A DNA stretch of 63,830 nucleotides, the filler included, from Reclinomonas americana ATCC 50394 (lineage: Eukaryota): NCBI GenBank assembly GCA_048213135.1. It is 21 parts of 21 records of this genome, joined end to end, with 100 filler letters (N's around TTAATTAATTAA, not from the genome) between each part and the next. Parts side by side here need not be neighbours in the genome. Positions count along the whole stretch, not along the records: positions 58,762 to 60,960 come from AFZH01022294.1; positions 61,061 to 62,501 come from AFZH01022295.1; 19 more parts are not named here. One strand, 5' to 3'. Below are positions 42,410-63,830 of this stretch, one piece after another. Below the pieces are notes generated by a model. It searched no databases, had not been told where the DNA came from, and saw only the letters and a program-made list of their open reading frames with translations. A program made the position numbers and the translations under genes. Numbering within the stretch: the first letter of the stretch is position 1; every line of letters begins with the position of its first letter.

Positions 42410-42477
42410 CCGTCCTCACGCGTTCGTGAATATACATCGGGGCGTTCCCCTGTACGCCAGGGAGGTATTCTGCTGCC

Positions 42478-43763
42478 ATGCCTCTCACCCTCGGCGAGCT
42501 CATCGCGGACCCGGAGCTGGACATCCGTGTCGAGTACTGGAACCGCGACGCGGATCCGGTAGTCACGGGTGCGCACGTGTCAGAACTGCTTCGTCCCGGC
42601 GAATGGCTGGCAGGCGGCGAGATCCTGATGACCGTCGGTGTGCAGCTTCCGATCACACCGGACGACTGCGCCGCCTACGTCCGCGACGTCAAAGCGGGCG
42701 GTGCGGTCGTTCTCGCGCTCGGTCTCGGGCACCGGCTCCCGCACCGGTCGGTGCCGCCGCTCCTCATCGAGGCGGCGGTGGCAGAGGACCTTCCCCTACT
42801 CGGCATCCCCGAGGAAGTGCCCTTCATCTCGATCACGAACGCGGTGTACGCGGCGATCGTCCTCGACGAGCGGCACGCTCTGGAGCGCCTCGTCGAACTG
42901 CACAAGTCGCTGACGTTCAGTGCGGCATCCGGAGGCGGACTGGAGGGGATCGTCGCGACCTGGACCGCGGCGACCGGCGTCGGCGTCGTGGTCACCGACC
43001 CCCTCGGCGTGCAGATCGTGGCCAGTGATCCCTCGGAGGGAACCCATCCCGAGGAGGAGACGCTGCGCGAGCTCGCGGCCGTGCTCGCTCCGAAAGGCGT
43101 GCGCGGGGCGCTGAAGACGACGATCGACGGCCAACCCGTCGAGGTGCAGCCGGTCGGAACGACCAGGCTGCGTGCGTTCGCGATGCTCATCGGCAACACG
43201 GGTCCGCTCATCCCGGTGGCGACCACCGCGCTGATCTCGATCCTCGCGCTCGAGCTGGAGCGACGATGGCTGACGAGCGAGCCGGACAGACAGCAGCGAG
43301 CGCGGGACTTCCAGCGAATCCTCATCGCCGAGTCGGAGAGCGAGGCCGAGGCGCTGCTCCGCGCCGCGGGGCTGACCGGTGCTGAGTTCCGATGCATCGC
43401 CGTCGATCCCGGCGACGGATCTCCCACGGACCTGGTCGCAGATCTCTCACTGACCATCCGGGGCGGGCTCATCCGGCACACCGAGGGCGGGCCCGTGGAG
43501 GCCATCGTCGCGAGCGACGCCGACATCGAGGAGGACATCCGCCGCTTCGCCCCCGCATCGGCCGCGGGGATCGGATCGTTGATGACCCCCGGGACGCTCG
43601 CGTCCTCGCGGGCGCAGGCGATGGCGGCGCTGGTCACCAGTCGCACGCTCGGGCGTCCGGTCGCCTACCGACGCGGATTCACGCAGGACTGGCTCACGAA
43701 CGCGACCGACCTCGAGATGGCGCAGACGTTCAGCGATGCGGTGCTCGCGCCGCTCACCCAGGC
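42478..43763 (+). CDS. PucR family regulator, 3' partial
   Basis: AHVSEL..WLAGGEILMT, VPFISI. Confidence 0.9.
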
Positions 43764-43863
43764 NNNNNNNNNNNNNNNNNNNNNNNNNNNNNNNNNNNNN
43801 NNNNNNNTTAATTAATTAANNNNNNNNNNNNNNNNNNNNNNNNNNNNNNNNNNNNNNNNNNNN

Positions 43864-44247
43864 GCGGAAGCTCCGGGATCGGTGGCCGACGGCCAGAATG
43901 ATCGCGGAGTAGCTCAGCCATTCCTCACCCACGCGGACGCGCCTGCCGACGACGTCGAGCTCCTCGGCGGGTCGACCGAGCCGCAGGTCGATGTCGAGTT
44001 CGCGCGTGAGCTCGTCCACATCGCGCAGCAGCACCTCCGGCGGTGCCGACTCCGTGATGAAGTCCTTCGACAGAGGAGGACGGTCGTAGGGCGGATGTTC
44101 CTCGTCGCCGATCATCATCAGCGCTCCGGAGTAGCCTGCCTGCCTCGCGCCTTCCGCCGCGCGGAGACCGGCCAGGCCGGCGCCGATGATGATCAGCGGC
44201 GGAGCAGGTTCTTCGACAGACTCGGGAGCAACGATCGGCGTCTCCAT
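43864..44247 (-). CDS. Ferredoxin reductase (FAD/NADH), 3' partial
   Basis: IIGAGLAG, GDEEHPPYDRPPLSK. Confidence 0.9.
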
Positions 44248-45399
44248 CAGCCGACTCGATCTCGCACGGTCATGGGGAACGCGGAATATCCCCAGACGCC
44301 GATGCGGTCACGGCGGACGACGCGATCGGTCGCGACCTCGAAGGAGTCCCAGCGGCTGACGGCGTGCTTCAGCAGGGTGCGCATCTCGAGACGGGCGAGA
44401 TGCTGTCCGAGGCACGCGTGGATCCCGCCGCCGAATGTGATGTGCGGATTCGGCGACCGATGGATGTCGAGCACGTCAGGATCGGTGAAGACGCGAGGAT
44501 CGCGGTTCGCAGCGAGGATGGCGAGCTGGATGGACTCGCCGGCCTTGATGACCTGATCGCCCAGCACGATATCGCTGATCGCGACTCGTGCGGTGAACGG
44601 CGAGGGCGATGCGAAACGGAGGAACTCCTCGGCAGCGCCCGGAATCAGTTCGGGGTCAGCCTTCAGCTCGTCCCAGACGTGCGGGAACTGCGTCATCGCC
44701 TCGAACGCCGCCGGAATGATGGTGGTGGTCGTCTCCGTGCCGGCGGAGACGAGCTCTTCGAGGCGGATCACGGCCTCCTGCTCGGACAGCAGCGTTCCTT
44801 CCTCCAGGCCCCGATGCAGCTTGTAGAGGACCGTGCCGGGCTCGGCGGTCGGCCCGAACGTTCGCAGAGCGTCGCGGAGGTGGTCCTCCAGGTTCTGGGC
44901 GGCGGCGTCGCTGAGCTCCAGGTCGATGCTCTCGAGATGCGGCTCGAGTGAACGGGTCAGGTCGATGGCCCAGTGGTTGAGCTGCAGCGCGTCCTCGGGC
45001 TCGTACCCGATCAGCTTCGTGACCACCGCGAGCGGCAGCGGCACGGAGATCGAGTCGAGGACGTCGAACTCGGTGTCGGCTTCGAGGTCGTCCAGGAGGC
45101 GGATGACCGTCTTCTCCACGATGTCGGCATAGTCGCGCTCGACCGCGCGGGGCGTCAGGAGCGGTGCCGTGTGGCGTCGCAGGCGGGGATGGTCAGGCAG
45201 GTCCGTCGTCACGAGCGCGCCCTCGATGCCTCGAGCGATCGCAGTGCCTTTGCCGAACGGGCACTGCTGCGCGTAGTCGGTGATCTTGTAGAGGCTCGCG
45301 TGGGCCTCTTCGAGGTTGTTGAGCACGCTCACGACGTCGGCGTGGCGACTGATGATCCAGCTGCCGGCGGCATCCGACCAGTGGACCGGGTTCTCTTCC
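44247..45399 (-). CDS. Cytochrome P450, 5' partial
   Basis: DLPDHPRLR, AGTETT, EEFLR, ANRDP, FGGGIHACLG. Confidence 0.95.
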
Positions 45400-45509
45400 N
45401 NNNNNNNNNNNNNNNNNNNNNNNNNNNNNNNNNNNNNNNNNNNTTAATTAATTAANNNNNNNNNNNNNNNNNNNNNNNNNNNNNNNNNNNNNNNNNNNNA
45501 GCGTCGTGC

Positions 45510-46921
45510 TCATGGCATGGTCCTTTCAGTGGAGAGGATCGGGAGGTCGGCGGACGTGAGAGCAGGACGATCGAGGACACGGGACAGGATCACGAACAGG
45601 ACGGCGGTCACGAGCCCGCCGAAGAGGATGGACATGTCGACGCCGCCGAGCCACCGGGAGATGGGGCCCTGGTACGACGCACCGTTCAGGGAGAGGAGGG
45701 CGATGACCGATCCGACGAGCAGAGCGACGATGCCGGAGATCCGGAAGCCCCCGCGGTACCAGAACGGGCTGTCCGGGGAGGTGACAGACAGGGCTCGGCC
45801 GTCGTAGCGACCGCGACGGCGGATGCTGTCGATGAGGAGGATCGCCGTCAGCGGTGCGGCGATCGAGCCGAGGCAGGTCAGTCCGAGCTGGAGGATGCCC
45901 AGGAAGTCGTCGGCGAGGAAGAGCACGTAGACCGTGGCGGCGGCGGCCGTGAGGCCGAGTGCGATCACCGCGGTCACCCTGTTCACCGGAACACCGGCGG
46001 CCTGGATGCCGAAGCTCCCGCCGTAGATCGTCATGACCGTGTTCATGATCGAGCCGATCACGATGACCACCACGAGGACGGTTCCGAACCAGTCGGGAAC
46101 GAGTCCCACGAGGCCGGCGATCGGGTCGGTCATATCGGTGGCGGTCGCGGCGAGCACGCCGATCAGCTCGAGGCCGACCAAGGGGATCATGCCGCCGAGA
46201 CCGACCGCGAGGATGATCGGGGTGCGTCGTGCCGTGCTCGGGATCTGCCGCGCGAAGTCGGCGGCGCTGCCCCAGGAGAGCGGCATCGCGATGCACAGCG
46301 TCAGGGCGATGATGAAGCCGATCACCGGCTGATCCGTCGGGACCGGTACAAAGGCCGCGAGATCGACCTTCTGCACGACGAAGAAGGCCAGCAGGACGAA
46401 GGCTGCGGCGATGATGATGGTCAGGACACCACTGGTGCGGACCATCATGTTGTAGCCGTAGATGGCCAGTCCCACGGATGTGAGCACGATCAGCCCGCAC
46501 ACGACGGCCGTCGTCGCGGGACCCTGCGCGATGCCGAGTCGCTCGGCGATCACCAGGCCGCCCTGGGTGCCGATGACCAGATTCACGGTCGTCACCATGG
46601 CGGACAGGACGACGACGACGCCGGCGCCGAAGATCCGATTCCCGCGTAGACCGAAGATGGCCCGGGTGATGATCGAGGTCGGCACTCCACCGGCAGCGCC
46701 GAGTGTGGCGAACCACCCCATCAGGAACATCAGGGTGTTCGACAGGAGGATGACGACGACGGCCTGCCACACTTCGAGCCCGAAGAGCATGATCGTCGCG
46801 CCGATGACCACGTAGAGCTGGGTGACGTTGGCCGAGAGGAACATGAAGAAGAGGTCCCGCGGCCGACCGGATCGCTGCTCGTCGGGATGAAGCTCGCGCC
46901 CTGGCTTCGACGGCACTCGCG
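45510..46921 (-). CDS. NCS1 / cytosine-purine permease, 5' partial
   Basis: Many TM helices; RAIFGLRG, ADFAR, FWYRGG. Confidence 0.85.
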
Positions 46922-47038
46922 NNNNNNNNNNNNNNNNNNNNNNNNNNNNNNNNNNNNNNNNNNNNTTAATTAATTAANNNNNNNNNNNNNNNNNNNNNNN
47001 NNNNNNNNNNNNNNNNNNNNNCGTGTGCCTTGGCAGTC

Positions 47039-47167
47039 TCAGGCGCCGTGCACCTCGGCGATCATGACCTGGGCGATGCCGTCGTCATCGATCTCGAAGA
47101 CATCGGGGGCGAGCTCCTCGCAGATCCCGTGGCCTGTGCATTTGACCTGATCAACCATTACACGCAT
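47039..47167 (-). CDS. Ferredoxin (P450-type), truncated near the contig end
   Basis: MRVMVDQVKCTGHGICEELAPDVF; the terminal CP motif is missing, probably through a frameshift or the gap. Confidence 0.75.
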   Translation of the reverse strand: MRVMVDQVKCTGHGICEELAPDVFEIDDDGIAQVMIAEVHGA

Positions 47168-47400
47168 GAGAAGTCCTTCATCGGATTGTCCTTCGGGGGA
47201 CGGGGCGGTCGCGTCTCTGCGCCATCCCATTCCCGGAACGATATGGCGGTAGGTGCTCGTCCGCACATATCCGCCGTGTACAAGAATTCGGCGCAGGTTG
47301 GCTGCTGTGTACGTCGCGGCGAGGTGGGCACGGGTGGTGGAGTGGCGGAACGCCGGTGAGTCTCACGGCCCACTCATCCCTTGTGCGAGGAGAAACGTCA

Positions 47401-48870
47401 ATGTCGACGACACCCATCGAAGAGGCTCGCAGCCTCCTGAACCCATCCAATGCACCCACTCGATACGCCGAGCGCTCCGTCGGACCGTTCTCCCTCGCGG
47501 CCATCTGGTTCGCCATGGCGATCCAGGTGGCGATCTTCATCGCCGCGGGACAGATGACGAGCAGCTTCCAGGTCTGGCAGGTGATCGTCGCCATCGCCGC
47601 AGGATGCACGATCGCAGTGATCCTGCTCTTCTTCACCCAGAGCGCGGCGATCCGCTGGGGCATCAACTTCACGGTCGCCGCGCGGATGCCTTTCGGCATC
47701 CGTGGATCGCTGATCCCGATCACGCTCAAGGCCCTGCTCTCGCTGTTCTGGTTCGGTTTCCAGACGTGGCTGGGCGCGCTGGCACTCGATGAGATCACTC
47801 GTCTCCTCACCGGATTCACGAACCTGCCGCTGTGGATCGTCATCTTCGGCGCGATCCAGGTCGTGACGACCTTCTACGGGATCACGTTCATCCGCTGGAT
47901 GAACGTCTTCGCCTCGCCGGTGCTCCTCGCGATGGGCGTGTACATGGTGTACCTGATGCTCGACGGCGCCGACGTGAGCCTCGGCGAGGTCATGTCGATG
48001 GGTGGCGAGAACCCTGGCATGCCGTTCTCGACCGCGATCATGATCTTCGTCGGCGGCTGGATCGCGGTCGTCGTGAGCATCCACGACATCGTGAAGGAGT
48101 GCAAGGTCGACCCGAACGCGTCGCGAGAAGGTCAGACGAAGGCCGACGCGCGATACGCCACGGCGCAGTGGCTCGGCATGGTGCCGGCATCCATCATCTT
48201 CGGATTCATCGGCGCCGCCTCGATGGTGCTGGTGGGGGAGTGGAACCCGGTCATCGCCATCACCGAGGTGGTCGGCGGCGTGTCGATCCCGATGGCGATC
48301 CTCTTCCAGGTCTTCGTGCTGCTCGCCACCTGGTCGACCAACCCCGCAGCGAACCTCCTCTCGCCGGCGTACACGCTGTGCAGCACGTTCCCGCGGGTGT
48401 TCACGTTCAAGACCGGTGTGATCGTCTCGGCGGTCGTTGGCCTGCTGATGATGCCGTGGCAGTTCGCCGGCGTGCTCAACACCTTCCTGAACCTGCTCTC
48501 GAGTGCTCTCGGCCCGCTCGCGGGGATCATGATCAGCGACTACTTCCTCGTGCGCCGTCGCCGCATCAGCCTGCATGACCTGTATCAGACCAAGGGCATC
48601 TACACGTACTGGCGAGGGGTCAACTGGGTCGCACTCGCGGTCTACGCGGTCGCGCTGGCGGTGTCGTTCCTCACTCCTGACCTGATGTTCGTGACCGGCC
48701 TGATCGCTGCCCTTCTGCTGCACATCCCGGCGATGCGATGGGTGGCGAAGACCTTCCCGCTGTTCTCCGAATCCGAGAACCAGAACGAGGACTACCTGCG
48801 ACCGATCGGCCCTGTGGCGCCGGCGGACGAATCAGCGACTGCGAACACGAAGGAGCAGAACCAGCGATGA
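47401..48870 (+). CDS. hyuP: Hydantoin permease, Mhp1/HyuP (NCS1), 489 aa
   Basis: Matches the Microbacterium Mhp1 sequence as recalled almost throughout (LLNPSNAPTRYAERS, FWFGFQTW, GGWIAVVVS, TNPAAN). Confidence 0.92.
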   Translation: MSTTPIEEARSLLNPSNAPTRYAERSVGPFSLAAIWFAMAIQVAIFIAAGQMTSSFQVWQVIVAIAAGCTIAVILLFFTQSAAIRWGINFTVAARMPFGIRGSLIPITLKALLSLFWFGFQTWLGALALDEITRLLTGFTNLPLWIVIFGAIQVVTTFYGITFIRWMNVFASPVLLAMGVYMVYLMLDGADVSLGEVMSMGGENPGMPFSTAIMIFVGGWIAVVVSIHDIVKECKVDPNASREGQTKADARYATAQWLGMVPASIIFGFIGAASMVLVGEWNPVIAITEVVGGVSIPMAILFQVFVLLATWSTNPAANLLSPAYTLCSTFPRVFTFKTGVIVSAVVGLLMMPWQFAGVLNTFLNLLSSALGPLAGIMISDYFLVRRRRISLHDLYQTKGIYTYWRGVNWVALAVYAVALAVSFLTPDLMFVTGLIAALLLHIPAMRWVAKTFPLFSESENQNEDYLRPIGPVAPADESATANTKEQNQR

Positions 48871-48925
48871 GAATCCATGTCATCAATCCCAACAGCTCGG
48901 TGGATCTCACCGATGCGGTGGCCGA
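48867..48925 (+). CDS. hyuA: Hydantoin racemase, N-terminal fragment
   Basis: MRIHVINPNSS; ATGA-coupled to hyuP. Confidence 0.8.
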
Positions 48926-49025
48926 NNNNNNNNNNNNNNNNNNNNNNNNNNNNNNNNNNNNNNNNNNNNTTAATTAATTAANNNNNNNNNNNNNNNNNNN
49001 NNNNNNNNNNNNNNNNNNNNNNNNN

Positions 49026-49525
49026 CCGGCCGCCTCGCGGTGATCGGACCGACCGGATGCCGGTACCTGCAGGACGAGCGGCAGACCAACTACGTCCAGA
49101 ACGGCTGGAACATCACCGGCGACACCTTCGTGATGGACGAGGAGGGCTACTTCACCTTCCATGCGCGGAACGACTCGATGATCATCACCGCTGGCTACAA
49201 CGTCGGTGCACCCGAGGTCGAGGAGGCCGTCGCGGCGCACCCCGACGTGCTCGAGTGCGCGGTCGTCGGACGACCGGACCCCGAACGGGGGAGCGTCGTC
49301 AACGCCTTCGTCGTCCCTCGTGCCGGCGTCGACCCGAGCGATGATCTCACCACGGCGATCCTCGGTGTGGTCAAGGAGCGGCTGGCGATCTACAAATGCC
49401 CGCGCCGCATCGACTACGTCGACGAGCTGCCGCGGAATCCCAGCGGGAAGATCCAGCACTTCATCCTTCGCGAGCGCGCAGCGGCCGAAGCCGCTGCCGC
49501 CGCCCTGATCAGCCAAGGAGCCTGA
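49026..49525 (+). CDS. Aromatic acid-CoA ligase (2-aminobenzoate-CoA ligase-like), C-terminal part
   Basis: GPTGCRYL.DERQ..YVQNGWNITGD, GYNV..PEVE, SGKIQ. Confidence 0.8.
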
Positions 49526-49526
49526 C

Positions 49527-50381
49527 ATGCGTGTCGCCGTCATCGGAGGAGGGCCAGGAGGCCTCTACTTCTCCGCACTCATGAAGCAGCTGAACCCCGA
49601 TCATGACATCACCGTCTGGGAGCGCAACGCTCCGGATGACACGTTCGGCTTCGGCGTCGTGTTCAGCGACGAGACCCTCGGCGGCATCGAGAACGCCGAT
49701 CCCGTGATCGCGCAGCGGATGGGCGAGCAGTTCGCGCGATGGACCGACATCGACATCCTTTTCGGAGGTCGCACCCACACCATCGGCGGCCAGGGCTTCG
49801 CCGCCATGGGCCGCAAGGAGCTGCTGCAGCTCCTGCAGCAGCGGTGCCTCGAACTCGGCGTCGACATCCGGTTCCGCACGGAGGCGCCGGATGCGGCGGA
49901 GTTGATGGGCACCCACGACCTCGTGCTGGCAGCCGACGGCGTGAACTCGCGGGTGCGAGGGCAGTTCGCCCGCGAGCTCGGTCCAGATCTGGATCGGCGG
50001 GTGTCGAAGTACATGTGGCTGGGCACCGATCGTGTGTTCGAGGCCTTCACCTTCGCCGTGCTGCGGACCCCGCATGGCGTCATGCAGCTCCATGGGTACC
50101 CGTACTCCGATCAGGGCAGCACGTTCCTGATCGAGATGCACGAGGACGTCTGGCGCGCGGCGGGCTTCGACGCGACCGAGGGTGAGATCTTCCCCCCTGG
50201 GGTCAGCGACATGTATTCGGTCGAGAAGATCCGCGAGTTCTTCGCCGACGTGCTCGACGGGCACGAGGTCCTCACCAACAACTCGAAGTGGCTGAACTTC
50301 ACCACCGTCCGCAACGAGCACTGGCATCACGAGAACCTCGTGATCCTCGGGGATGCTGCGCACACCGCGCACTTCTCGATC
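49527..50381 (+). CDS. Anthraniloyl-CoA monooxygenase / salicylyl-CoA 5-hydroxylase, FAD domain, 3' partial
   Basis: GGGPGGLY, ERN.PDDTFGFGVVFS, ADGVNS, GDAAHTAHFSI. Confidence 0.88.
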
Positions 50382-50481
50382 NNNNNNNNNNNNNNNNNNN
50401 NNNNNNNNNNNNNNNNNNNNNNNNNTTAATTAATTAANNNNNNNNNNNNNNNNNNNNNNNNNNNNNNNNNNNNNNNNNNNN

Positions 50482-51193
50482 CGACCACCCTCAGGAGGGC
50501 GCGACGGTCGTGCTGCGGCACACGGGGGCGAGCGTCCGCGGCAAGAAGCTCCTCGACGCGCTCCGCTCCGGCACCGGGGGCGGTATCGAGATCGCGGTCC
50601 CGGCGATCAAGCGCGACAGCGACAGGGTCGACTTCGCCGCGGGCGAGTTCCGCTCGGCGAAGAAGCGCATCGCGCCGCCCGCACTGCGAGCGCTCGTCTC
50701 GGCCTTCGCCGACGATCTCACCGAACTCGCCGCGGCATGCCAGCAGCTGATCGGCGACGTCGAGGGCGACATCACGGAAGACACCGTCACCCGGTACTAC
50801 GGCGGCCGGGTCGAGGTCTCGGCCTTCGTCGTCGCAGACACGGCGATCGCCGGTCGTTACGGCGAGGCGCTGATCGCGCTGCGTCATGCACTGTCCTCCG
50901 GTGCCGACCCCGTGCCGATGGTGGCGGCATTCGCCATGAAGCTCCGCGGCATGGCGCGGGTGGCGGGCAATCGAGAACCCAGCAGGCAGCTGGCTCAGCG
51001 CCTCGGCATGAAGGACTGGCAGGTCGATCGCGCACGGCGCGACCTGGCCGGCTGGAACGAACGCTCGCTCGGCATGGCGATCCAGGCGACCGCGCGCGCC
51101 GACGCCGAGGTCAAGGGCGCCGCGCGCGATCCGATCTTCGCCCTCGAGCGCATGGTGACTGTCATCGCCACCCGTGAGCCCTTCGGGGCATAG
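50482..51193 (+). CDS. holA: DNA polymerase III delta subunit, 5' partial
   Basis: LRH.G..RGKKLLD, ELAAACQQL, WQVDRARR, ADAEVKG; convergent with rpsT. Confidence 0.9.
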
Positions 51194-51203
51194 GGCGGGC
51201 ACG

Positions 51204-51230
51204 AAAAAGCCCGCCTCGGTGAGGCGGGCT
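51204..51230 (-). terminator. Intrinsic terminator of rpsT
   Basis: AGCCCGCCTC-ggt-GAGGCGGGCT with a U tract on the minus strand. Confidence 0.8.
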
Positions 51231-51268
51231 GATTCAGAAGCTGATGCTCAGTGAGCAGAAGCGTTCGC

Positions 51269-51529
51269 TCAGAGAGCGGAGACCTGCTTGGCGAGAGCCG
51301 ACTTGCGGTTCGCGGCCTGGTTCTTGTGCAGAACGCCCTTGCTGACGGCCTTGTCGAGCTTGACGGCGGCCTTCTTGAGGGTGGCCTCGGCAGCGGTCTT
51401 GTCGCCGGCGGCGACGGCGGTCTTGGTCGAGCGGATGAGCGTCTTGAGTTCGCTCTTCACGGCCTTGTTGCGCTCGTTCGCCTTGATGTTGGTCTTGTTG
51501 CGCTTGATCTGCGACTTGATGTTTGCCAC
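51269..51529 (-). CDS. rpsT: 30S ribosomal protein S20
   Basis: [42 protein letters not shown] start. Confidence 0.97.
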
Positions 51530-51750
51530 GTGTGGAACCTTCTGTACAGGAGTGATGGGAAATGCTGGCAGCAGAAGAGGGCTGCTGCACAGCGGTCGTA
51601 TGGGAAGAACCCACACGCAAGCCAAGAGTCGAGTCTATCAGCAGAGGACTCGATCACGCGAAACGGCTGCAAGAAGCGGTACTGAGTCGCGGAAACGCTG
51701 GTACCGGGTGCAGAATCAACCTTATCCGGACACCGATGTCGAGGAGCCAC

Positions 51751-52867
51751 ATGACCGCCGTCCCCACCCGCTTGTCTCTGCCCGCGGGATTCCGCTGGTC
51801 CGCCGCGACATCCGCCTTCCAGATCGAGGGGGCCCGTGGCGCCGAGGGCAGCGGTCGATCGATCTGGGACGACTACCTCGAGGCTCCCGGCGCGATCAAG
51901 GACTGCTCCACGGCCGATCCCGCGTGCGACAGCTATCGGCATCCGGAGGCGGACGTGTCTCTCGCGGCCGGTCTCGGCCTCGATCGCTACCGCTTCTCGA
52001 TCCCGTGGGCGCGGGTGCAGCCCGATGGCAGGGGAGCGGCGAACACCGCGGCCCTCGACCACTACTCGCGCTTCGTGGATCTCCTGCTGGAAGCCGGCGT
52101 CGCTCCCTTTCCGACCCTGTATCACTGGGAGATGCCCAGCGCCGTCGAGGCCGACGGCGGATGGCTCCGTCGTGACACGGTCGAGCGCTTCGCCGACTAC
52201 GCCGCGATCGTGGTCGACCGACTGGGCGATCGCGTCGCCCAGTGGTACACCCTGAACGAGCCGGCGATGACCACGCTGCAGGGCTATGCGGTCGGTGCGC
52301 TCGCCCCCGGGAAGCAGCTGCTGTTCGACGCCCTGCCGACCGTTCATCACCAGCTCCTCGCGCACGCCCGCGCCGCCGAGGCCATCCGATCCCGCGGCTC
52401 CGCCCAGGTCGGCCTGGTGAACAACCACACCTGGGTGCTTCCTCTCAACGACACGGCAGAGGACCGTCGTGCAGCAGCTCTCTACGACATGATCCACAAT
52501 CGGGTGTTCAGCGAGCCGCTCCTGGCCGGCGGGTATCCCGACCTTGCGGCCTGGGGGCTTCCTGCCATGCCGGTGCAGGACGGCGATCTCGAAGCGATCC
52601 GGGCATCGATCGACTTCTACGGCATCAACTTCTACAACCCGACCACCGTCACCGCCGCAGATGCGTCGAGCCCCATCCCGTTCGACATCGTGCCGACACC
52701 GGGCGTCGCCGTCACCGGATTCGGACCCGAATGGCCGATCATGCCGGAGGCTCTGCGCGATCTCCTGATCGACCTGCGCACACGGCATCCGCACCTCCCT
52801 CCCGTCATCATCGGCGAGAACGGCGCCTCGTTCCCCGAGCCCGATCGCGCCGCACGCGTCGAGGATG
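51751..52867 (+). CDS. GH1 beta-glucosidase, 3' partial
   Basis: ATSAFQIEG, YRFSIPW, TLYHW, TLNEP, GENG. Confidence 0.95.
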
Positions 52868-53025
52868 NNNNNNNNNNNNNNNNNNNNNNNNNNNNNNNNN
52901 NNNNNNNNNNNTTAATTAATTAANNNNNNNNNNNNNNNNNNNNNNNNNNNNNNNNNNNNNNNNNNNNAGAGGTGCGGATGCCGTGCACGAAGACGATCTG
53001 GACGTTCACGCGTTCAGCATAAGGA

Positions 53026-53060
53026 AAGCGGGGCCGGTGGATGAACCACCGACCCCGCTC
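53026..53060 (-). terminator. Hairpin downstream of the substrate-binding protein gene
   Basis: AGCGGGGCCGGTGG...CCACCGACCCCGCT. Confidence 0.6.
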
Positions 53061-53095
53061 CGGGGCACTTCGACGAGCTCAGTGTCCCCGGGGAA

Positions 53096-54814
53096 TTACT
53101 TCTCCCAGCCGAGGTTCTCGACGGGAGTGACTCCGAAGAGGTCCAGTCCGACGTACGGCTCCGGCGTGAGGTTCGCCAGACCCTTCTGGGCCACGTAGAC
53201 CGACGGACCGTTGTAGAGCGGGATGACGCCCCAGGTCTTCTCGATCAGCTTCGGCTCGAGCTTCATGGCAGCTTCGGTCCAGCTCTTGGCGTCCTTCTGC
53301 GACTCGACCTCGTCAGCGATCTCCTTGTCCATCTCGGCGTTGCCGGTGGCGGAGAGGTTCAGACCGCTGTCGGAGCAGTAGATCTGGCACATCCACGCCG
53401 GTCCGAACGGGTCGGAGTCGGTGAAGCGGAGACCGAAGATGTCCCAGTTCTTCGACGTGAAGTCATCGGAGAAGTCAGCCGACGCGCGGACCTCGATCTG
53501 CACATCGATGCCGATCTCCTTCTGCTGAGCCTGCAGCGACTTCGCGAGCGCCTCCTGCACGGGGCTGTTGCTGAAGATCGGGTAGACGACCGTGAACTTG
53601 ACGCCGTCCTTCTCGCGGATGCCGTCATCGCCCTCGACCCAGCCTGCGTCGTCGAGGAGCTTCTTGGCGCCGTCGACGTCGTACTTCAGACCGGCTTCGC
53701 CGAACGCGTCGGACCACCCGTCTTGGAAGGAGTACATGTTCAGCGAGCCGGCCGCCTCTTCCTCGTAGCCGAGGCCGTTCCAGGCGATCTGCTTCTGCTG
53801 GTCGATGTTGATTCCCATGAAGAACGCCTTGCGCACCTCGAGGTCTGCGAACTGCGGCTTGTCGCCGTCGACCATGAGGACCGTCTTGGCGGTCTGCTGA
53901 GCGCGACGGACGACAGCGCCGTCGACGTCCTCGACCTGGGCCAGGCGCTCCTGGCTGCCGGCCTCCACCTGGTCGATCTCGCCGTTCTTGAAGGCGTTGA
54001 TCGCGGCGTCGTCTTCCAGCGCCGTGAAGGTCACCTTGTCGAGCAGCGGCGCGTTGCCCCACCACTCGGGGTTCGGCTTGAACGAGACGAAGCCCGCGTT
54101 CGCGTCGAACTCGTCGACGGTGTACGGACCCGCACCCCACTCGGCGTTGAGGTTGCCGATGTAGGCGTTGTTGAAGGTCTCGACATCAGCGTGCTTCGGG
54201 TTGAGGACACCACCCGTGAGGAACGCCATGGACGGCCATGCGTAGATGCCGTCGAAGGTGACGACCGCGGTCTTCACGGAGTCGCCCTCCTCGACCGACG
54301 TGATCTGCTTGTAGCCGTCGGTCGCGTTCGGGTTGTAGCCCTCCTCGGTCGAGCGGTTCGCCTTCCACGTCGCGTCGATGGCGGTCCAGTCCATGTCGGT
54401 GCCGTCGTTGAAGTGGGCCTCGTCCGTGAACGTGAAGGTCAGCGTCGTGTTGCCGCCGTCCTCGCCGATCTCGTAGGCGTCGAGGTACGCGTCGTTCTTC
54501 GTGACCTCACCCTCCGGGCTGACGAGGAGGAGCTGCGGCATGTAGTAGTACCACAGGCGCGCCGTGTCGGCGCTGGCGTCGCTGTTGAAGGCGTTGAGCT
54601 GCTCCGGGACCTCGTTGATCTCGAAGTTGACCTCGCCGCCCTCCTTCAGGTTCTCGCGGGGCTGCGGGTTGTAGTCCGCTGCCTTGGTCTCGACGGTCTC
54701 GCCGCCGCCGTTGTCCCCGCCGCCGGTGTTCCCGGAGCCGCTCGCGCAACCCGCGAGGGCGAGTGCGAGGGCGCCGCTGATCGCGATGGCCCCCAACAAC
54801 TTCTTGTTCTTCAT
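53096..54814 (-). CDS. ABC transporter family 5 substrate-binding lipoprotein
   Basis: Lipobox LAGC, F.DGT, GAGPY, GDDGIREKDG. Confidence 0.9.
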   Translation of the reverse strand: MKNKKLLGAIAISGALALALAGCASGSGNTGGGDNGGGETVETKAADYNPQPRENLKEGGEVNFEINEVPEQLNAFNSDASADTARLWYYYMPQLLLVSPEGEVTKNDAYLDAYEIGEDGGNTTLTFTFTDEAHFNDGTDMDWTAIDATWKANRSTEEGYNPNATDGYKQITSVEEGDSVKTAVVTFDGIYAWPSMAFLTGGVLNPKHADVETFNNAYIGNLNAEWGAGPYTVDEFDANAGFVSFKPNPEWWGNAPLLDKVTFTALEDDAAINAFKNGEIDQVEAGSQERLAQVEDVDGAVVRRAQQTAKTVLMVDGDKPQFADLEVRKAFFMGINIDQQKQIAWNGLGYEEEAAGSLNMYSFQDGWSDAFGEAGLKYDVDGAKKLLDDAGWVEGDDGIREKDGVKFTVVYPIFSNSPVQEALAKSLQAQQKEIGIDVQIEVRASADFSDDFTSKNWDIFGLRFTDSDPFGPAWMCQIYCSDSGLNLSATGNAEMDKEIADEVESQKDAKSWTEAAMKLEPKLIEKTWGVIPLYNGPSVYVAQKGLANLTPEPYVGLDLFGVTPVENLGWEK

Positions 54815-54956
54815 GGTGCTCCTTCCGCCTTTCGGCGATTCATAAAGGGAAGAATAGTTCGCCTTGTTCCGAACCACAGCGGGCGACAGTGAATACCGCC
54901 TAACCGTTATCGGACGGTGACCACAGCATCGTTCCGCGGATTTTCGTGGTCGTGTC

Positions 54957-55813
54957 TCAGGCCGTCACGGCGCGGGTGCTCATGGTCTCGGCATCGAAAA
55001 CCACGCGCTGGCGCGTGCGTTCGATGTCGGGATCGGGAACGGGGATGGCCGAGAGCAGCGCCTTCGTGTACGGATGCTGCGGGTTCTCGAAGACGTCGTC
55101 GACGTCGCCGTGCTCCACGAAGTCACCGAGATACATGACCGCCACGCGGTCCGCGATGTGCCGCACGACGGACAGGTCGTGCGCGACGAACAGGTACGAC
55201 AGACCCAGCTTCGCCTTCAGCTCATCGAGGAGGTTGATCACGCCCGCCTGGATCGAGACGTCGAGTGCCGACACCGGCTCATCCAGGACGACGATCTTCG
55301 GGTTGGTCGACAGGGCACGGGCGATGCCGATGCGCTGTCGCTGTCCTCCGGAGAACGCCTGCGGGAAGCGGTCGCTGTGCGCGGGATTCAGCCCGACGAG
55401 GTCCATCAGCTCGTCGACCCGACGGTGCGCCTCCTCCTTGGGGGTCCCGATCGCGAAGAGCGGCTCCGAGATGATGTCGGCGACCGTCATGCGCGGGTCG
55501 AGTGCTCCCATCGGGTCCTGGAAGACGATCTGGATGTCGCGGCGCAGCTGACGCTCTACCTTGTGGCTGTGGATGTCGTTCACGCTCGTGCCGGCGATGA
55601 CGATGTCGCCGTCGGTCTGCTTGACCATGTCCATGATCTGCAGGAGCGTCGTCGTCTTGCCGCTCCCGGACTCGCCGACGATCGCCATCGTCTCGCCCTC
55701 GCGCACATCGAAGCTCACGCCCTTGATCGCGTGCACCTCACCGACCTTGCGCTTCAGGAACGCGCCCTTGAGAAGAGGGAACGTCTTGGTGAGGTTCTTG
55801 ACCTCGAGCGTGA
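54957..55813 (-). CDS. Dipeptide/oligopeptide ABC ATPase, 5' partial
   Basis: GESGSGKT, FQDP, FSGGQRQR, DEPVSALD, HPYT. Confidence 0.93.
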
Positions 55814-55913: not shown

Positions 55914-58661
55914 ACACTTCCGCCGCTTACAATTCCACTAACAGAAAGCGATGAGCCCACAATCGTGCCACCTGACAAGATCCCGCTTGTGGTAATACTG
56001 CCACCGCTGACAATGCCTACGGCGCTAATGTTGCTTGTGATACCAAGAGTATTCGTGACGATGACGGAGGCGCTGATCGAGCCAGAGGTAGTAAGGTCAG
56101 CCGCAGTCAATAGGCCGGCAGTGCTGATGGAACTACTCTGCAATGACCCCACAGTGGTCACGCTGCCACCTGCTATCAGACCGCCTGCATTAATCACACC
56201 GAATGTGCTGATGCTGCCGCCTTGCACCGAGCCCGCTGTCGTCACACTGCCGGCACTGATCAAACCAGACGAGCTGACGGTGCCAGACTGCATGCTGCCA
56301 ACCGTCGTCACACTGCCACCACTGATCAAGCCAGAGGAGCTCACAGTGCCACTCTGCATGCTGCCGACCGTCGTCACACTGCCACCGCTCATCAAACCAG
56401 ACGCGCTGACAGTGCCACTCTGCATGCTGCCAACCGACGTCACACTGCCACCGCTGATCAACCCAGATGAGCTGACGGTGCCAGACTGCATGCTGCCAGT
56501 CGACGTGAAGCTACCACCGCTCACGAGACCAAACGAGCTCACAGTGCCAGATTGCACACTGCTAACTGTCGTCACACTGCCGCCGCTGATCAATCCTGCA
56601 GAGCTCACAGTTCCAGACTGCATGCTGCCAGTCGACGTGAAGCTTCCGCTGCTAACAACGCCAAAGGAGCTTATAGTGCCAGACTGCACGCTGCCGACCG
56701 TCGTCACACTACCGCCGCTGATCAAGCCGAATGAGCTCACAGTGCCGGACTGCACGCTGCCAGTTGTCGTCACGCTGCCGCCGGTAATCAGACCACCAGC
56801 GCTAATCACACCGAGCGTGCTGATACTCACGCCCTGCAGCGAGCCCGCTGTCGTCACACTACCGCCGCTGATCAAGCCGAATGAGCTCACAGTGCCAGAC
56901 TGCATGCTGCCGACCGTCGTCACACTGCCACCACTGATCAAGCCGAACGAGCTGACAGTGCCAGACTGCACACTGCCAGTCGACGTGAAGCTACCACCGC
57001 TGATCAACCCGAATGAGCTGACGGTGCCACTCTGCATGCTGCCAACCGACGTCACACTGCCACCGCTGATCAACCCAGATGAGCTGACGGTGCCAGACTG
57101 CATGCTGCCAGTCGACGTGAAGCTACCACCGCTCACGAGACCAAACGAGCTCACAGTGCCAGATTGCACACTGCCAACTGTCGTCACACTGCCGCCGCTG
57201 ATCAATCCTGCAGAGCTCACAGTTCCAGACTGCATGCTGCCAGTAGACGTGAAGCTTCCGCTGCTAACAACGCCAAAGGAGCTTATAGTGCCAGACTGCA
57301 CGCTGCCGACCGTCGTCACACTACCGCCGCTGATCAAGCCAAATGAACTCACAGTGCCAGATTGCATGCTGCCGACCGTCGTCACGCTGCCCCCAGTAAT
57401 AAGACCACCAGCGTTAATCACACCGAGCGTGCTTATACTGCCACCCTGCAGCGTACCCGCTGTCGTCACACTACCGCCGCTGATCAAGCCGAATGAGCTG
57501 ACGGTGCCGGACTGCATGCTGCCGACCGTCGTCACACTGCCNNNNNNNNNNNNNNNNNNNNNNNNNNNNNNNNNNNNNNNNNNNNTTAATTAATTAANNN
57601 NNNNNNNNNNNNNNNNNNNNNNNNNNNNNNNNNNNNNNNNNGCCAGACTGCATGCTACCAACCGTCGTCACGCTGCCGCCGCTGATCAACCCGAATGAGC
57701 TCACAGTGCCAGACTGCACACTGCCGACCGTCGTCACGCTGCCACCACTGATCAAGCCAAACGAGCTGACAGTGCCTGACTGCACGCTGCCGACCGTCGT
57801 CACGCTGCCGCCGCTGATCAACCCGAATGAGCTGACGGTGCCAGACTGCATGCTGCCGACAGTCGTCACACTTCCGCCACTGACCAAACCAGACGAGCTG
57901 ACAGTGCCAGACTGCATGCTACCAACCGTCGTCACACTACCGCCGCTGATCAAGCCGGACGAGCTGACAGTGCCAGATTGCACACTGCCGACCGTCGTCA
58001 CGCTGCCACCACTGATCAAGCCAAACGAGCTGACAGTGCCAGACTGCACACTGCCGACCGTTGTCACGCTGCCGCCACTGATCAACCCGAATGAGCTGAC
58101 GGTGCCAGACTGCACACTGCCGACCGTTGTCACGCTGCCGCCGCTGATTACACCGAATGTGCTGACGGACCCGCTCAACAGCGATCCCACAGTCGTCACG
58201 CTGCCGCCACTAACGACTCCAAAGGTACTGACCGAGCCACTTTGCAGTGTTCCAGCCGTAGTGACGCTGCCACCGCTGATCAATCCAGCAGCACTGAGGT
58301 TACTGCTCAGCGCGAGGGTGTTTGTAAAAATGGTGGATGCACTGATCGACCCACTGGTGGAAATCGTGCCGCCGAACACCGTACCAGCCGTACTCATTGT
58401 ACCGCCCTGTATGCTACCGACAGCAGTAAGGCTGCCGCCACTAATCATACCCGCAGAACTGATCGATCCGCCACGGATGCTGCCGAGAGTGGTCACGCTA
58501 CCACCGGTAATAATGCCTAGTGCACTCACAGAGCCGGCCTGGACTACGCCCGCGGTCGACAAGGACCCACCGCTGACTGTCCCGATTGCACTCACCGTCG
58601 CTGCACGCACGGCACCGCCCGTTGTCACACTGCCGGCGCTGATGACCCCTGACACGCTGAC
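55914..58661 (-). CDS. Gly/Ser/Thr-rich 22-aa tandem-repeat protein fragments (two contigs)
   Basis: Unit SGTVSSFGLISGGSVTTVGS(M/V)Q; open frame throughout both contigs. Confidence 0.7.
55914..58661. repeat. 66-bp coding tandem repeat with a 612-bp higher-order duplication
   Basis: The sequence at 56461 recurs nearly identically at 57073. Confidence 0.9.
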
Positions 58662-58761
58662 NNNNNNNNNNNNNNNNNNNNNNNNNNNNNNNNNNNNNNN
58701 NNNNNTTAATTAATTAANNNNNNNNNNNNNNNNNNNNNNNNNNNNNNNNNNNNNNNNNNNN

Positions 58762-61700
58762 CCACGGCATCCAGGTCGACGACGAATGGCACACCAGGAG
58801 TGAGACGCAGAACTTGCCCGGCGGCGCTTCCGACTCGGACGACAGCAGTATTGACAGAGACACTTGTGATCGCGTCTGCACGATACTGTACGTGAGTACA
58901 CGACGAGAAAGAGATGACGAGCAAAATACAGCACATACGCAGCTGACAATAACCGTCTGGGTCGACGTCATACCCAGTTGACCGACGGACACGCTGCTGG
59001 CGGCGACGACCGCCGCAGCAAACTCACGACCAATGGTCAGCTGCGTACCAAATTCGAGTTCCAGTGCACTCTTCGAGTTGACGGACAGCTTCGATCCCGG
59101 AGAGGCCACATCGACATCACCGGCCATGCTGAGCACTGTGCTGGCAAAGGCGTCGATTCGCAGTTTCGACACATTGTCGATGAGGAACATCAAGCTGGTA
59201 CCAACGCCGGCGCTGGTGCTGGCAAACATGCCAGTGTCACCGTCACCAGTAAACGAGTATCCCACATTTCCGCTATTGCCGGCAACGGGCGGCGAACCCT
59301 TGCCGGCTCGCACGCCGCCGACTGTGTGCAGCGACGCTTCAGGGGCCAGCGTACCTACACCGAGCCAGCCTGCGCCAGTGAACACGGCACGACTCGCCAC
59401 GAGTATGTTGCCCGTGAAGCCACCTCCCACGCGAAGACCACCAGCATTCGGCGCTGTACTAAGCGCCTCAAGTACCGCGCTCGAGGCCAGAGACACAGTG
59501 GTCTCAGAGATGGCGAGATTGCCCGTCATGCTAATGGTTGAGGGTGATGTTGCGGGCACGGTGATCCGCGGCGTTCCACCAACTTGCACCACGAGGTTGC
59601 ACGATGTCCCACTCACAGAGTCGCAGAACAGTCCAGTAGAACCGAAGCTCTCAAACGAAAAACCAAAGTCGTCGGCAGTGGAGGCTGGAATGCCACGGCT
59701 TGCACGCACACCGCCAGCTACTTCGAGACGGCCACGTGGTGCGCCGGTGCCCACTCCAAGAGCTCCACCGCTGAGAAGGGTCATGCGAGTCGGCGTGGCG
59801 CCCCAGCGCATCTCCTGGGTACCACCGCCGATAACGAGCACTGATGCAGCGAACGATGCCAGTGGCGCAGTACCGAGAGTGATTGTGGAGCCAGTGATTG
59901 CCATATCACCAGTGACGGTGACAGCTGTAGCGGCAAGGCTGGGCACATAGAGCCGATTTACACCGTTCACACGCAGCGCCAAGTCGGCGGCGGTAGTCAC
60001 AGGGGAGAACAGACCAGTGGCGCCACTTGGACCCTGGAACGATACACCAACATCGAGGCTGCCGCCAGCCGGGTCACCCTGTGCCACTTGAACGCCACCG
60101 GCAACATGCAAGCGAGTGACAGGCGCCCCAATACCAATACCCAGCCGACCAGAGCTGGAAAGGACCATAGCCAACGTCGGAGAATTTGCGCGCCACATAA
60201 TGTCACCGGTGGCAGATGGGACAAAGGACACTGATGATGCCAGCCCAATAGTAGCGAGGGGAGCGCCAGCAAGGCTGATGGCCGACCCCGACACCGACAG
60301 CGAACCAGTCAGGGCGATAGCATCAATGACACTGGTTGGAATGAACAAGCGGGTGGTCGAATCCACCGTGAGCGACAAGTTGTTCGTCGCTGATGTTGAG
60401 AACATGCCAGTGCCCGCGGCTCCGTCAAACGAAAAGCCGGCGTTGGATGCTGTCGCCCCACGTCCCGCACGCACACCACCCAGCACGTGCAGCTGAGTGC
60501 CTGGCGCACTTGTGCCAATACCGACCAAACCCGTAGAGGCAACCATCTGTAAAAAAAAAATGGCAACCGTGTCAACCAACGAACAAGGACTCAACAGCGA
60601 ATATCTCGACAACAGCACACACACCAACGCATCCGGCCCGAGGAAGACTTGCGAAGCATCGCTACCAAGGCGAATTACAGAGCCGACTGTGCCGGCCAGA
60701 GATACTCCACCCACGCGCACACTGTTTTGCTGTACGTCTAGCGTGCCAAACACGGTGACTGGCAGCAACGAATCCGCCGGTATACGCAGCCGGCTAACTC
60801 CACCAATGCTCATCACCAAATCGCCCACTGACGCCGCGGCTAAAACAACACGATTCAGAGGTGAGTGAAAAACTGAAAGAGGGCGTCCAGAGATCGCACT
60901 GGAACAGCAGACGCACCAGTCATGTACAGGCCGCTATCACCGTACGCGCCGAACGAAAAANNNNNNNNNNNNNNNNNNNNNNNNNNNNNNNNNNNNNNNN
61001 NNNNTTAATTAATTAANNNNNNNNNNNNNNNNNNNNNNNNNNNNNNNNNNNNNNNNNNNNCCCTCCGGCCACATTAACGCCACCAGTGTAGGCCGCGCTG
61101 AAATTGATGTGCAGTACATCGGTTGCCGAATCGACAAACAGCGGCGACCGGCCTCCCGCGCCCAACTGCAGCGAAGAGCCGAGAATCGACAAGCCACCAC
61201 CAGTGATAATTACGTTGCTGGCAAGTGAGTTGGGCATTTGGATTCGTGCAACTCCGTCCACCGCCAGCACCATGTCACTGCCATTGGCGGTCGTCCCACC
61301 CACGGCAAACAGACCAGTATCACCATCGCTGTCAAAGGCGTACCCTGCGTCTCCACTGTTTGACGCAGGAATCACACCCTTCGCCGCGCGCACACCGCCA
61401 GCCGCATGAATTGTGGCCAGTGGGTTGTTTCCGAGACTGATGGCGGGAGACTGATGAGAGTGGGAAATGAGACGTCGGAGTCGGGCAACACAAACGCAAC
61501 GATGACCCCACTGCCAAGCGACCATCAGAGGTGCGCAGGAACATTTGGCTGCCGCCGAACGCCACGCCGCCAGTGAACGCCAGCGAGGAGTTAATGCCCA
61601 GAACATCAGTGGCCGAATTGTACGACAGAGCGACGCGGTTGCTGGTGCCCACGGCAACTGAGCCGCCGCCAACGAGGAGCGACTGGGAGAGCGCCACAGA

Positions 61701-62501
61701 GGCACTCGTGTCGCTGGGAATCAGCAGGCGCTGCGATCCGTCAATGACCAGCGAGAGGGAGCTGGTGTCAGAACTTGTGCCTATCAAAGTGTGAGACACC
61801 ACGCGCACACGCAAAGGAATGGTGAGAAAGGAAAAAAACACAACCTCCAGATGCAAACAAGCCAGTGTCGCCGTCCTTGGCAAACGCAAAGCCCACATCG
61901 CCGCTGTTGCCACCAGAGAGACCCTTGGCCGCTCGTACACCTACGCCGCGCAAGTAAACAACTGATTCACAATACGGCTCTCTCTTCCTCGCACGCACAA
62001 ACCTCCAGCCGAATGCAGCGTGGCCTCCGGCGCCAGCGCCAGAGCACTGCCGACTCCAAGACGACCAGTGCCTGTCGAACTCAAAATCATCTGGTTGGCG
62101 CCAAACACGATGCCATTCTCGAACGCATTGCCTGCGTGAATTATATCGCAGGGTGTTAACAACAGAGGCATCAGTATGGTTGCTGCAAGGGGGCATTCGA
62201 AGCAATTAGGCGTCGACGAACCGGGATTGAGAGACAAAAGACCAAGAGCGTCTTGTGTCTGCAACACCAGTCGAGCTGGTGTGCCCAACGACAGTCGAGT
62301 TGATGCAATCGAGACATCGCCACTGATGGACACGGCGCCGCCAACAGGAGGCACTTGAATGCGAGAGACGCCATCGACTTGCAGAACCAGGGAGCTCCCA
62401 GAGACGCCAGTGCCTGCCAAGCGCACAGATGAGTGGAGAGCGGAGGAGTGGGGGAGGGAGGGAGGGAGGGAGGGAGGGAGGGAGGGAGGGAGCACCTGTG
62501 G
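58762..62501 (-). CDS. Intron-containing eukaryotic gene fragments encoding virus/phage fibre-like repeats (two contigs)
   Basis: Recurrent G(L/V)G(I/V)GT.AP...LHV.GGVRA..G and (F/Y)SF..DGDTG(L/M)F motifs; frames restored by removing GT-AG introns. Confidence 0.75.
60840..60916 (-). other. Spliceosomal intron (clearest example); others at 60547-60624, 61781-61844, 61941-62002, 62132-62221, 62414-62495, and less certain ones near 58887-58938 and 61437-61512
   Basis: GTGCGT...CTCAC...TTTTAG; splicing gives GDSGLYMTA-AASVGDLVM. Confidence 0.85.
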
Positions 62502-62782
62502 NNNNNNNNNNNNNNNNNNNNNNNNNNNNNNNNNNNNNNNNNNNNTTAATTAATTAANNNNNNNNNNNNNNNNNNNNNNNNNNNNNNNNNNNNNNNNNNN
62601 NAGAGAGAGAGATGGGGTCGTGTGGAACAGGAGAGTATGGCTACATTGTCAGGAAGAGGAAGGAAAGACATCGTCGATGGAGAGCGAGAGAGAACAACGA
62701 CAAGCAGAGAGAAGCTCGATCTTCTGCAATCTTTTCAGCGCTTGTTGTCTGCGAGAGAGAGAGAGAGAAGGAAACGCTCTTT

Positions 62783-63340
62783 CTACGGTATTCTACCTGC
62801 CATGTCACCCTCATCTCGCTTCCCAGCCTCTTTGGAGAAGGATGACGAAACAAGGGCTATGTGGGAGAGGGAGAGGGAGAGGGAGAGGGAGAGAGAGAAG
62901 AAGAAGAAGAAGAGGAAGAGGAAGAAGAGAATGTCTGCCTCATTGTGGAGAACGAGAGTGCGAGGAGACGCAACAAACGCCGACGGTGTGTTCACGCTGG
63001 TGGGCGACTGCGCAGCAGAAGCAGCAGCCGCTGTCGGGGCTCTGCGCTCATAATACTCGACCGTGGTGACCACGCGTGGAGGCTCCGGATGTACTCCTCG
63101 TGGAGGAGGCGGCGGCATCGCCGTGCCCAACGAATGCAACGGCGACGATGGCGACGACGACGAGGCCGACGAATTCAACGAGGATAGGCGCAAATGATGG
63201 GGAGCATGCACCGATCGTGGTGTTGGTCGTCGCACATTCGCGCCCAAGTTCAGCTCCACGTCGTAGAGGTTGAGGGATTGTTGGCGAGGATTGGGAGGAG
63301 GAGGTGGTGGTGGAGAGGGTGTGCTGTCGCGGCGACGCAT
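62783..63340 (-). CDS. Possible eukaryotic exon, Pro/Ser-rich
   Basis: Open frame between microsatellites; no recognisable domain. Confidence 0.25.
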   Translation of the reverse strand: MRRRDSTPSPPPPPPPNPRQQSLNLYDVELNLGANVRRPTPRSVHAPHHLRLSSLNSSASSSSPSSPLHSLGTAMPPPPPRGVHPEPPRVVTTVEYYERRAPTAAAASAAQSPTSVNTPSAFVASPRTLVLHNEADILFFLFLFFFFFSLSLSLSLSLSHIALVSSSFSKEAGKRDEGDMAGRIP

Positions 63341-63344
63341 CTGG

Positions 63345-63830
<486 letters not shown>

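Follow-up and report, generated by a model that had tools for sequence, protein, structure and literature searches.

On the minus strand of positions 58762-62501 of the 63,830-nucleotide stretch of DNA analysed here (the window), repeated protein modules of the kind known from phage and bacterial fibres are interrupted by short intron-like sequences. The best explanation, to which a probability of about 0.7 is given, is that the two pieces of sequence concerned come from a single nuclear gene, or from a pair of paralogues, of a eukaryote whose DNA was co-assembled with that of Microbacterium, and that this gene encodes a long trimeric fibre with short spliceosomal introns, the ancestor of which would have been acquired. 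The window (1-63830) is a pseudomolecule of 21 contigs (1.0-10.5 kb) and 20 linkers of 100 nt, each linker consisting of 44 N, TTAATTAATTAA and 44 N, so that 40 runs of exactly 44 N are found in it. One of these artificial, non-biological linkers (60961..61060) lies inside the fibre interval and splits it into two separate contigs, A (58762-60960, 2199 nt) and B (61061-62501, 1441 nt), with the consequence that 58762..62501 can no longer be treated as a single locus, as it had been in a preliminary description made from the sequence. Since contigs are joined by artificial linkers, their adjacency in the window is no evidence of linkage, and both A and B terminate within coding sequence or an intron.

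Six full and two partial modules of 127-139 aa were read from the minus strand of both contigs, sharing the motif G.LG(I/V)G..AP...LH(V).GGVRA..G...G(F/Y)(S/A)F...G.TG(L/M)F, in agreement with the repeat described before. In a three-frame translation of this strand the motif-bearing protein jumps between reading frames. Introns were positioned by eye on the minus-strand sequence and then checked by script, which gave seven complete interruptions of 53-90 nt, all seven starting with GT and ending with AG, in addition to one partial intron. G5-T6 follows at the 5' site in five of the seven, and a number of them show a pyrimidine run or CTNAC-like element ahead of the 3' site, such as T10-ACAG in intron A2 and TACTCAC in intron A3. 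Their composition (GC 0.44-0.56, T 0.28-0.45) differs from that of the exons (GC 0.60, T 0.24). Once the introns are removed, stop-free readings of 355 codons in contig B and 663 codons in contig A are obtained with the modules in register, and the junctions quoted in the preliminary description, HSAG|GVRAAKG, LFASG|GTSSD and LNP|GNAFENG, were reproduced exactly. The register was tested independently by building a profile from the four intron-free modules of a 1608-nt exon and searching with it the unspliced three-frame translations of the remainder. Every other exon was found in its own frame, with E values from 2e-5 to 6e-23 (6e-23 for the best match of contig B, 2e-5 to 1e-9 for its smaller exons), and the profile positions continue across the introns (..29|27.. 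at B2, ..57|59.. at B3, ..62|62.. at A1). The mark of a nuclear spliceosomal gene, GT-AG boundaries whose removal restores both one open frame and the protein register, was found at all seven complete introns; the preliminary description had likewise read the interruptions as GT-AG introns whose removal restores the motifs.

A decayed bacterial or phage fibre gene has to be weighed at this point, the supposed introns being in that case frameshifts, insertions or sequencing errors that have a GT..AG pair around them by chance. All named relatives are indeed bacterial, and the contigs sit in a bacterial assembly. Nevertheless, decay is very unlikely because of the seven exact GT-AG restorations, each of which brings back frame and module register to the residue; a rough, uncomputed estimate of the chance that a GT and an AG fall within a few bases and in the correct frame is ~0.07 per gap, and hence ~1e-8 for seven. 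The difference in composition between interruptions and exons, the pyrimidine tracts and the CTNAC-like branch sites also speak against decay, as does the fact that, beyond one marginal match, the gene was not found in 201 Microbacterium genomes. The anatomy supports a predicted gene with spliceosomal introns, and not a bacterial or phage gene.

The predicted structure, all of it on the minus strand, is as follows. In the direction of the gene, contig B opens with the 3' part of intron B0 (62414..62501), which is partial, holds a (TCCC)n run and ends in CAG in phase 1. It is followed by exon B1 (62222..62413, 192 nt), a module tail lying between phase-1 introns and covering profile positions 60-109, by intron B1 (62132..62221, 90 nt, GTTCGT...GCAG, phase 1), and by exon B2 (62003..62131, 129 nt, profile positions 3-29), which contains G.LGVG...AP...LHSAG. 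Intron B2 (61941..62002, 62 nt, GTTTGT...GTAG, phase 1) separates the latter from exon B3 (61845..61940, 96 nt, profile positions 27-57), with GVRAAKG...GFAF..DGDTGLFASG, and intron B3 (61781..61844, 64 nt, GTTGTG...ATAG, phase 1) leads to exon B4 (61507..61780, 274 nt, profile positions 59-121), holding the second half of one module and the start of the next. Intron B4 (61437..61506, 70 nt, GTCATC...TCAG, phase 2) is the least certain model, and exon B5 (61061..61436), open to the contig end, carries one module (P0002; profile E 6e-23). Contig A starts within a partial exon, A1 (60917..60960), containing FSFGAYGDSGLYMT, followed by intron A1 (60840..60916, 77 nt, GTGCGT...TTAG, phase 1), exon A2 (60625..60839, 215 nt), the second half of a module at profile positions 62-126, and intron A2 (60547..60624, 78 nt, GTGTGT...T10-ACAG, phase 0). 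The large exon A3 (58939..60546) comprises 1608 nt or 536 codons (P0001) and four consecutive intron-free modules. After intron A3 (58886..58938, 53 nt, GTATGT...TACTCAC...ACAG, phase 0), the partial exon A4 (58762..58885) runs open to the contig end with non-module sequence and no stop codon.

The positions of the introns carry further information. Introns B0, B3 and A1, each of phase 1, occupy the equivalent place in three modules, just after ..TG(L/M)(F/Y)xx(x), and differ in position by no more than one codon; exons B1-B3 (192, 129 and 96 nt) are multiples of three, symmetric 1-1. The four modules of exon A3 have no intron at the B0/B3/A1 site. This pattern fits a duplication of modules together with their introns, followed by some intron loss or gain, and the recurrence at an equivalent site implies a long evolution under a splicing regime. 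It also bears on the main rival explanation, namely that the gene belongs to a eukaryotic virus or an endogenous viral element (polinton-like virus, virophage or giant virus) and that the fibre serves for attachment of the virion to its host. According to passages of PMC12220804, large and modular fibre genes of phage-like type, ended by S74 and of up to 3.9k aa, are common in the polinton-like viruses integrated in protist genomes, and the nearest clusters in the Protein Atlas are viral (Uroviricota, scores 0.90-0.93), although the recognition value of 1933 lies below the tool's mark of 2300 and makes this a weak lead. Against a viral gene stand the density of introns (eight within 3.6 kb, three of which recur at equivalent places in the module), which points to a long residence under host splicing, and the intronic (GGGA)n run, which matches the microsatellites of the neighbouring contig. 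Moreover, P0001 had a single distant relative in IMG/VR (46% over 56 residues), and P0104 and P0014 had none, in pattern scans that detect close relatives only. A viral gene is therefore judged unlikely, and a nuclear gene of the eukaryote itself is preferred.

As regards its place in the assembly, the fibre gene is foreign to Microbacterium. Seven consecutive contigs (41959-55813) match the nearest genome, G001 (4.1 Mb in 3 contigs), at C1:210427-237222 with 98-100% identity and with order and strand kept, 57 bp to 6.9 kb of G001 lying between one and the next, and a 593-aa protein from this region reaches up to 95% identity with proteins of Microbacterium species; on this evidence of sequence match, these seven contigs are Microbacterium DNA. 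Contigs A and B, in turn, have no DNA match in G001, and the 536-aa exon product used as query matched one of 201 Microbacterium genomes, marginally (E 3.8e-4, 35% over 79 residues). GC is 0.59 in the fibre contigs against 0.61-0.70 in the bacterial ones, and the GC3 of the spliced fibre reading, 0.60-0.62, lies below the 0.65-0.92 of four bacterial ORFs in the window, so that neither presence in the Microbacterium relatives nor codon use is that of a gene of this genus. Furthermore, the partial intron of contig B holds (GGGA)10, and the next contig holds (GGGA)33, (GA)87 and GT runs; such microsatellites are not expected in Microbacterium.

The homology of the modules with phage and bacterial fibre proteins is supported by several kinds of sequence comparison. 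In PHROGs, the tail-fibre families phrog_18345 (5e-12) and phrog_9942 (3.4e-8) were matched. An exhaustive search among 1.84 billion representatives gave 595 relatives at E<=1e-3, with 23 at <=1e-10 and none at <=1e-30; the best library relative of the fibre protein has an E value of 9.6e-27 and 33% identity, those of the 595 that have a name are bacterial, and Peptidase_S74 stands at the end of 8 of the 25 best. A profile search for longer relatives found 51, of which 15 carry S74, every given organism name being bacterial. The word-indexed protein search returned 3 matches for P0001 and 9 for the profile designated A1, most of the profile's own members not being recovered by the latter, and no eukaryotic named protein was found in the library, word-indexed or longer-relative searches. 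Pattern scans with P0001 gave relatives for 3 of 107 pattern matches in GTDB genomes, 1 of 5 in IMG/VR and 5 of 219 in JGI metagenomes, with identities of at most 48%, all of them distant and either bacterial or unassigned. No near-identical sequence was found in the protein, GTDB, IMG/VR and JGI collections searched, from which the source organism seems to be absent.

Pfam gave no family at E<=1 in P0001, P0002 and four further exon pieces, and two sub-threshold matches to unrelated families in one further exon, while NCBIfam held no family for the fibre pieces. The S74 chaperone domain that had been suggested as something to look for (Peptidase_S74, PF13884) had no match in any exon of A or B, a result that tells nothing about the whole protein, since the 3' end of the gene lies off the contigs. 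Among solved structures, a single-sequence search of the PDB gave a weak match to Bd2133, and a 30-sequence profile recovered five chains, all of them Bdellovibrio MAT fibres and led by 8OND (1.2e-14). In Foldseek, ranks 1-13 among the matches listed were likewise Bdellovibrio MAT fibres (TM 0.15-0.19), a result that serves as a ranking alone, the monomer model being poor and the TM values low. The capping-loop motif recurs in every module. The preliminary attribution of the motif to phage, bacterial and giant-virus fibres stands for the first two, through PHROGs, the library, the PDB and Foldseek, but its giant-virus part was borne out by no search.

The Bdellovibrio bacteriovorus MAT ('mosaic adhesive trimeric') fibres are, in the accessible part of PMC10769870, surface-displayed, intertwined homotrimeric beta-helices, in which the motif V-G-G/N-pi-x-x-P-x-x-x-L forms the capping loops, a motif that the same text also matches to MyRF; the solved tip of Bd3182, of 135 residues, is 60 A high. 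The fibres Bd2133, Bd1334, Bd3182 and Bd2439 (PDB 8OND, 8OML, 8OJN, 8OL4, 8ON4) share with the window gene the recurrent VG(I)G..xP...L, and their homotrimeric architecture, as far as it is described there, matches the three-copy model of the window protein. When three copies of residues 1-254 of the large exon product were modelled, an ipSAE of 0.89 was obtained (median of three runs), the best of 3 controls giving 0.00; the mark applied is reached by 21 of 30 proteins solved as same-chain pairs and by none of 23 solved as single chains. The trimer runs agreed in at least 91% of contacts, with a partner pLDDT of at least 83 and about 850-900 contacts along the whole chain, and the predicted homotrimer extends along the shaft. 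An AF2 model of two modules as a monomer was poor (pLDDT 60.4, pTM 0.34). The profile and structure searches called for at the outset returned PHROG tail-fibre families and five MAT chains, and the trimer model passes its controls. There are also differences from MAT fibres. The MAT genes are bacterial and intron-free, and their products have a signal peptide, an N-terminal conserved domain of ~130 aa and a tip (S74 or adhesive domain), whereas the window gene has predicted introns and both of its ends lie off the contigs; its module is longer, with a GGVRA.KG...DGDTGLF loop every ~130 residues, and identity is low, 18-29% in the Foldseek alignments.

This loop is the second of the two elements that make up the module, the first being the capping loop G.(L/V)G(I/V)G..xP...L.V, and it reads GGVRA.KG-x(5-10)-G(F/Y)(S/A)F-x(2-4)-G(D)TG(L/M)F. 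When the extended core is used as a pattern, 35 of the 167 sequences collected match; it occurs once in bacterial-type relatives, twice in P0006 and in each of the six full window modules. Bacterial fibre proteins such as P0006, P0012, P0017, P0085 and P0166 carry the loop GG(I/V)RA.KG...G(Y/F)(A/S)F..DGDTG(M/L)F once or twice, directly before the S74 domain in P0012 and near the C-terminal end in P0166. No Pfam family covers the extended loop in the proteins scanned. In the trimer model its residues 35-50 are among those of the interface; at a guess, it might be a metal site.

Seven library relatives show the ~130-aa module in the same style (P0010, P0014, P0019, P0020, P0049, P0057 and P0104), about 25-38% identical to the window gene. 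A pattern scan also found the second half of the module, L.INP..(F/Y).GG(I/V), in P0014, P0020, P0049 and P0104. Six of them (P0010, P0014, P0019, P0020, P0049 and P0057) run into or out of hydrophobic, C- and F-rich sequence that is not module, tails that read-through into introns would give and which offer a lead to a eukaryotic origin, and in P0057 the module breaks after ..SGLFAG, the site of the phase-1 introns of the window gene. Each of these relatives is a single sequence taken from a public read assembly, where its contig measures 1.5-4.1 kb.

A core tree was built of 37 rows and 82 columns, from which P0001 and P0002 were omitted as copies of window rows, and P0156, P0158, P0164 and P0165 as cluster mates. 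Of its 34 inner branches 6 are starred and 15 open, the alignment being too short to resolve them. The 19 bacterial-type rows form one group, unstarred, outside of which the window modules and the eukaryote-like rows stand comb-like, and one eukaryote-like row joins two window modules with a support of 96/87. The phylogeny that had been proposed was thus obtained, but it indicates neither a donor nor a direction of transfer. In this context, the module family could be old in the eukaryotic lineage, or could have passed from a eukaryote to bacteria and phages, with no acquisition and domestication. The tree is compatible with such a history, in that it places the window modules inside no bacterial group and gives the bacterial-type rows their own, unstarred one; in addition, identity between the eukaryote-like fragments and the window gene is about 30%, which means that the family is not recent in them. 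However, bacteria account for the named relatives among the 595 and for the 15 long relatives, out of 51, that carry S74; no search returned a named eukaryotic protein; the fold and the motif belong to the phage and bacterial fibre type; and bacteria have the extended core once or twice beside the tip, whereas the window gene has it in tandem. An old eukaryotic family is accordingly held to be a little less probable still than a viral gene, and acquisition is retained: from the distribution of the family, a bacterial, phage or viral source of the module is likely. Of the earlier proposal of a horizontally acquired fibre gene in a eukaryote, the intron anatomy and the fibre homology sustain one part, while donor and direction are left without support by the tree; a horizontal origin is plausible.

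Comparison with other known systems helps to delimit what would be new. Phage tail fibres and tailspikes that carry an intramolecular chaperone at the C-terminus (Peptidase_S74, PF13884) have in common with the window gene the PHROG tail-fibre matches and the S74-ended relatives, and differ in that the window gene has predicted spliceosomal introns and shows no S74 in its available exons, its 3' end lying off the contigs. MYRF and Dictyostelium MrfA, as presented in the parts available of PMC3742443 and PMC8326128, are the precedent for a phage-tailspike element used as a trimerising unit in a eukaryotic nuclear gene. MYRF, however, is a transcription factor bound to a membrane, with one short phage-derived beta-helix stalk and an ICA (S74) domain, whereas the window gene has at least 8 tandem modules and no other domain, and no MYRF chain was among the PDB matches of the window fibre protein. 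The fibres of polinton-like viruses and virophages in protist genomes resemble it as large, modular, phage-like fibre genes in eukaryotic genomes, but the accessible text of PMC12220804 describes laminin G, collagen, adenovirus-fibre, PTR or BppL modules with S74 and does not mention spliceosomal introns; the window gene has a different module and a high intron density. Word searches of the open-access literature found no paper on a nuclear fibre gene that, like this one, has introns and several modules.

Several points weigh against the explanation preferred here. Splicing itself is read from genomic sequence. Contigs A and B begin and end inside the gene, so that no start, stop, signal peptide or tip domain is present on them, and no eukaryotic marker gene is linked on their 2199 and 1441 nt. 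Separated by a linker, they may be non-adjacent, in another order or at any distance, and may be paralogues and not parts of a single gene. The 5' site of intron B4, GTCATC, is weak, and a GT 8 nt upstream together with a CAG 14 nt upstream would give an in-frame alternative. The trimer result may come from the model's memory of solved MAT fibres, and its calibration was on two copies, not three. The core tree neither unites the window modules with the eukaryote-like fragments nor names a donor, and the eukaryotic nature of the seven relatives, itself a lead, is read from their translated tails.

The remaining contigs of the window fall into distinct groups. Nine contigs (1-41858) are tiled with bacterial ORFs at a GC of 0.61-0.67 and have just short, weak matches to G001, except for the final 100 nt (41759-41858), which match it at 97%; their origin may lie in strain-specific islands, in a plasmid or in a second bacterium. 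The last five contigs (55914-63830), A and B included, have a GC of 0.56-0.61 against 0.61-0.70 in the remainder. Two of them (55914-57541 and 57642-58661; GC 0.59-0.61) consist of 66-nt (22-aa) tandem repeats, reading GGSVTTVGS.QSGTVSSFGLIS on the minus strand, open from end to end, a plus-strand frame being open too. These repeats gave sub-threshold Bflower_2 matches and weak matches in 3 of 201 Microbacterium genomes, and had no match in the PDB or NCBIfam. They might represent another fibrous protein of the same foreign source or a continuation of the fibre gene; the latter idea was dropped, since, although strand and composition fit, nothing links them. The last contig (62602-63830) is dominated by microsatellites, namely (GGGA)33, (GA)87, GT and GAGT runs and (GGGAGA)6, with a proline-rich open frame on the minus strand at about 63342-62940, and looks eukaryotic and non-coding or of low complexity. 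The finding flags non-bacterial contigs among the DNA of a bacterial draft assembly, and the last five contigs of the window (55914-63830) should not be annotated as Microbacterium genes.

According to the mechanism proposed, the gene would encode at least 1018 residues of tandem ~130-aa modules, and three chains would wind together over their entire length to give a rigid fibre. Taking 135 residues per 60 A, as in the solved Bd3182 tip, the two fragments together would span roughly 45 nm. The product would most likely be an extracellular adhesive or structural filament, secretion and function being inferred, and the surface adhesin or prey-capture filament of the preliminary description is an inference of the same kind. 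The module's ancestor probably came from a bacterium, phage or virus; inside the eukaryote the module would then have multiplied, and the introns would have been gained or carried along. A wider proposal, more tentative and with chances falling somewhat short of even, is that an unsequenced eukaryotic lineage with at least 7 distant relatives owns an intron-rich family of nuclear fibre genes, in which shafts have grown by the duplication of symmetric phase-1 exons, and that this family represents a second, independent domestication of a phage fibre besides MYRF, in this case extracellular.

If the gene is what it seems, a phage or bacterial adhesion fibre would have entered the nuclear genome of a eukaryote, received introns there and been lengthened one module at a time. 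The gene would then point to a eukaryote lineage that the sequence collections searched do not reveal, and would offer a concrete case of eukaryotes reusing the surface machinery of viruses and bacteria.

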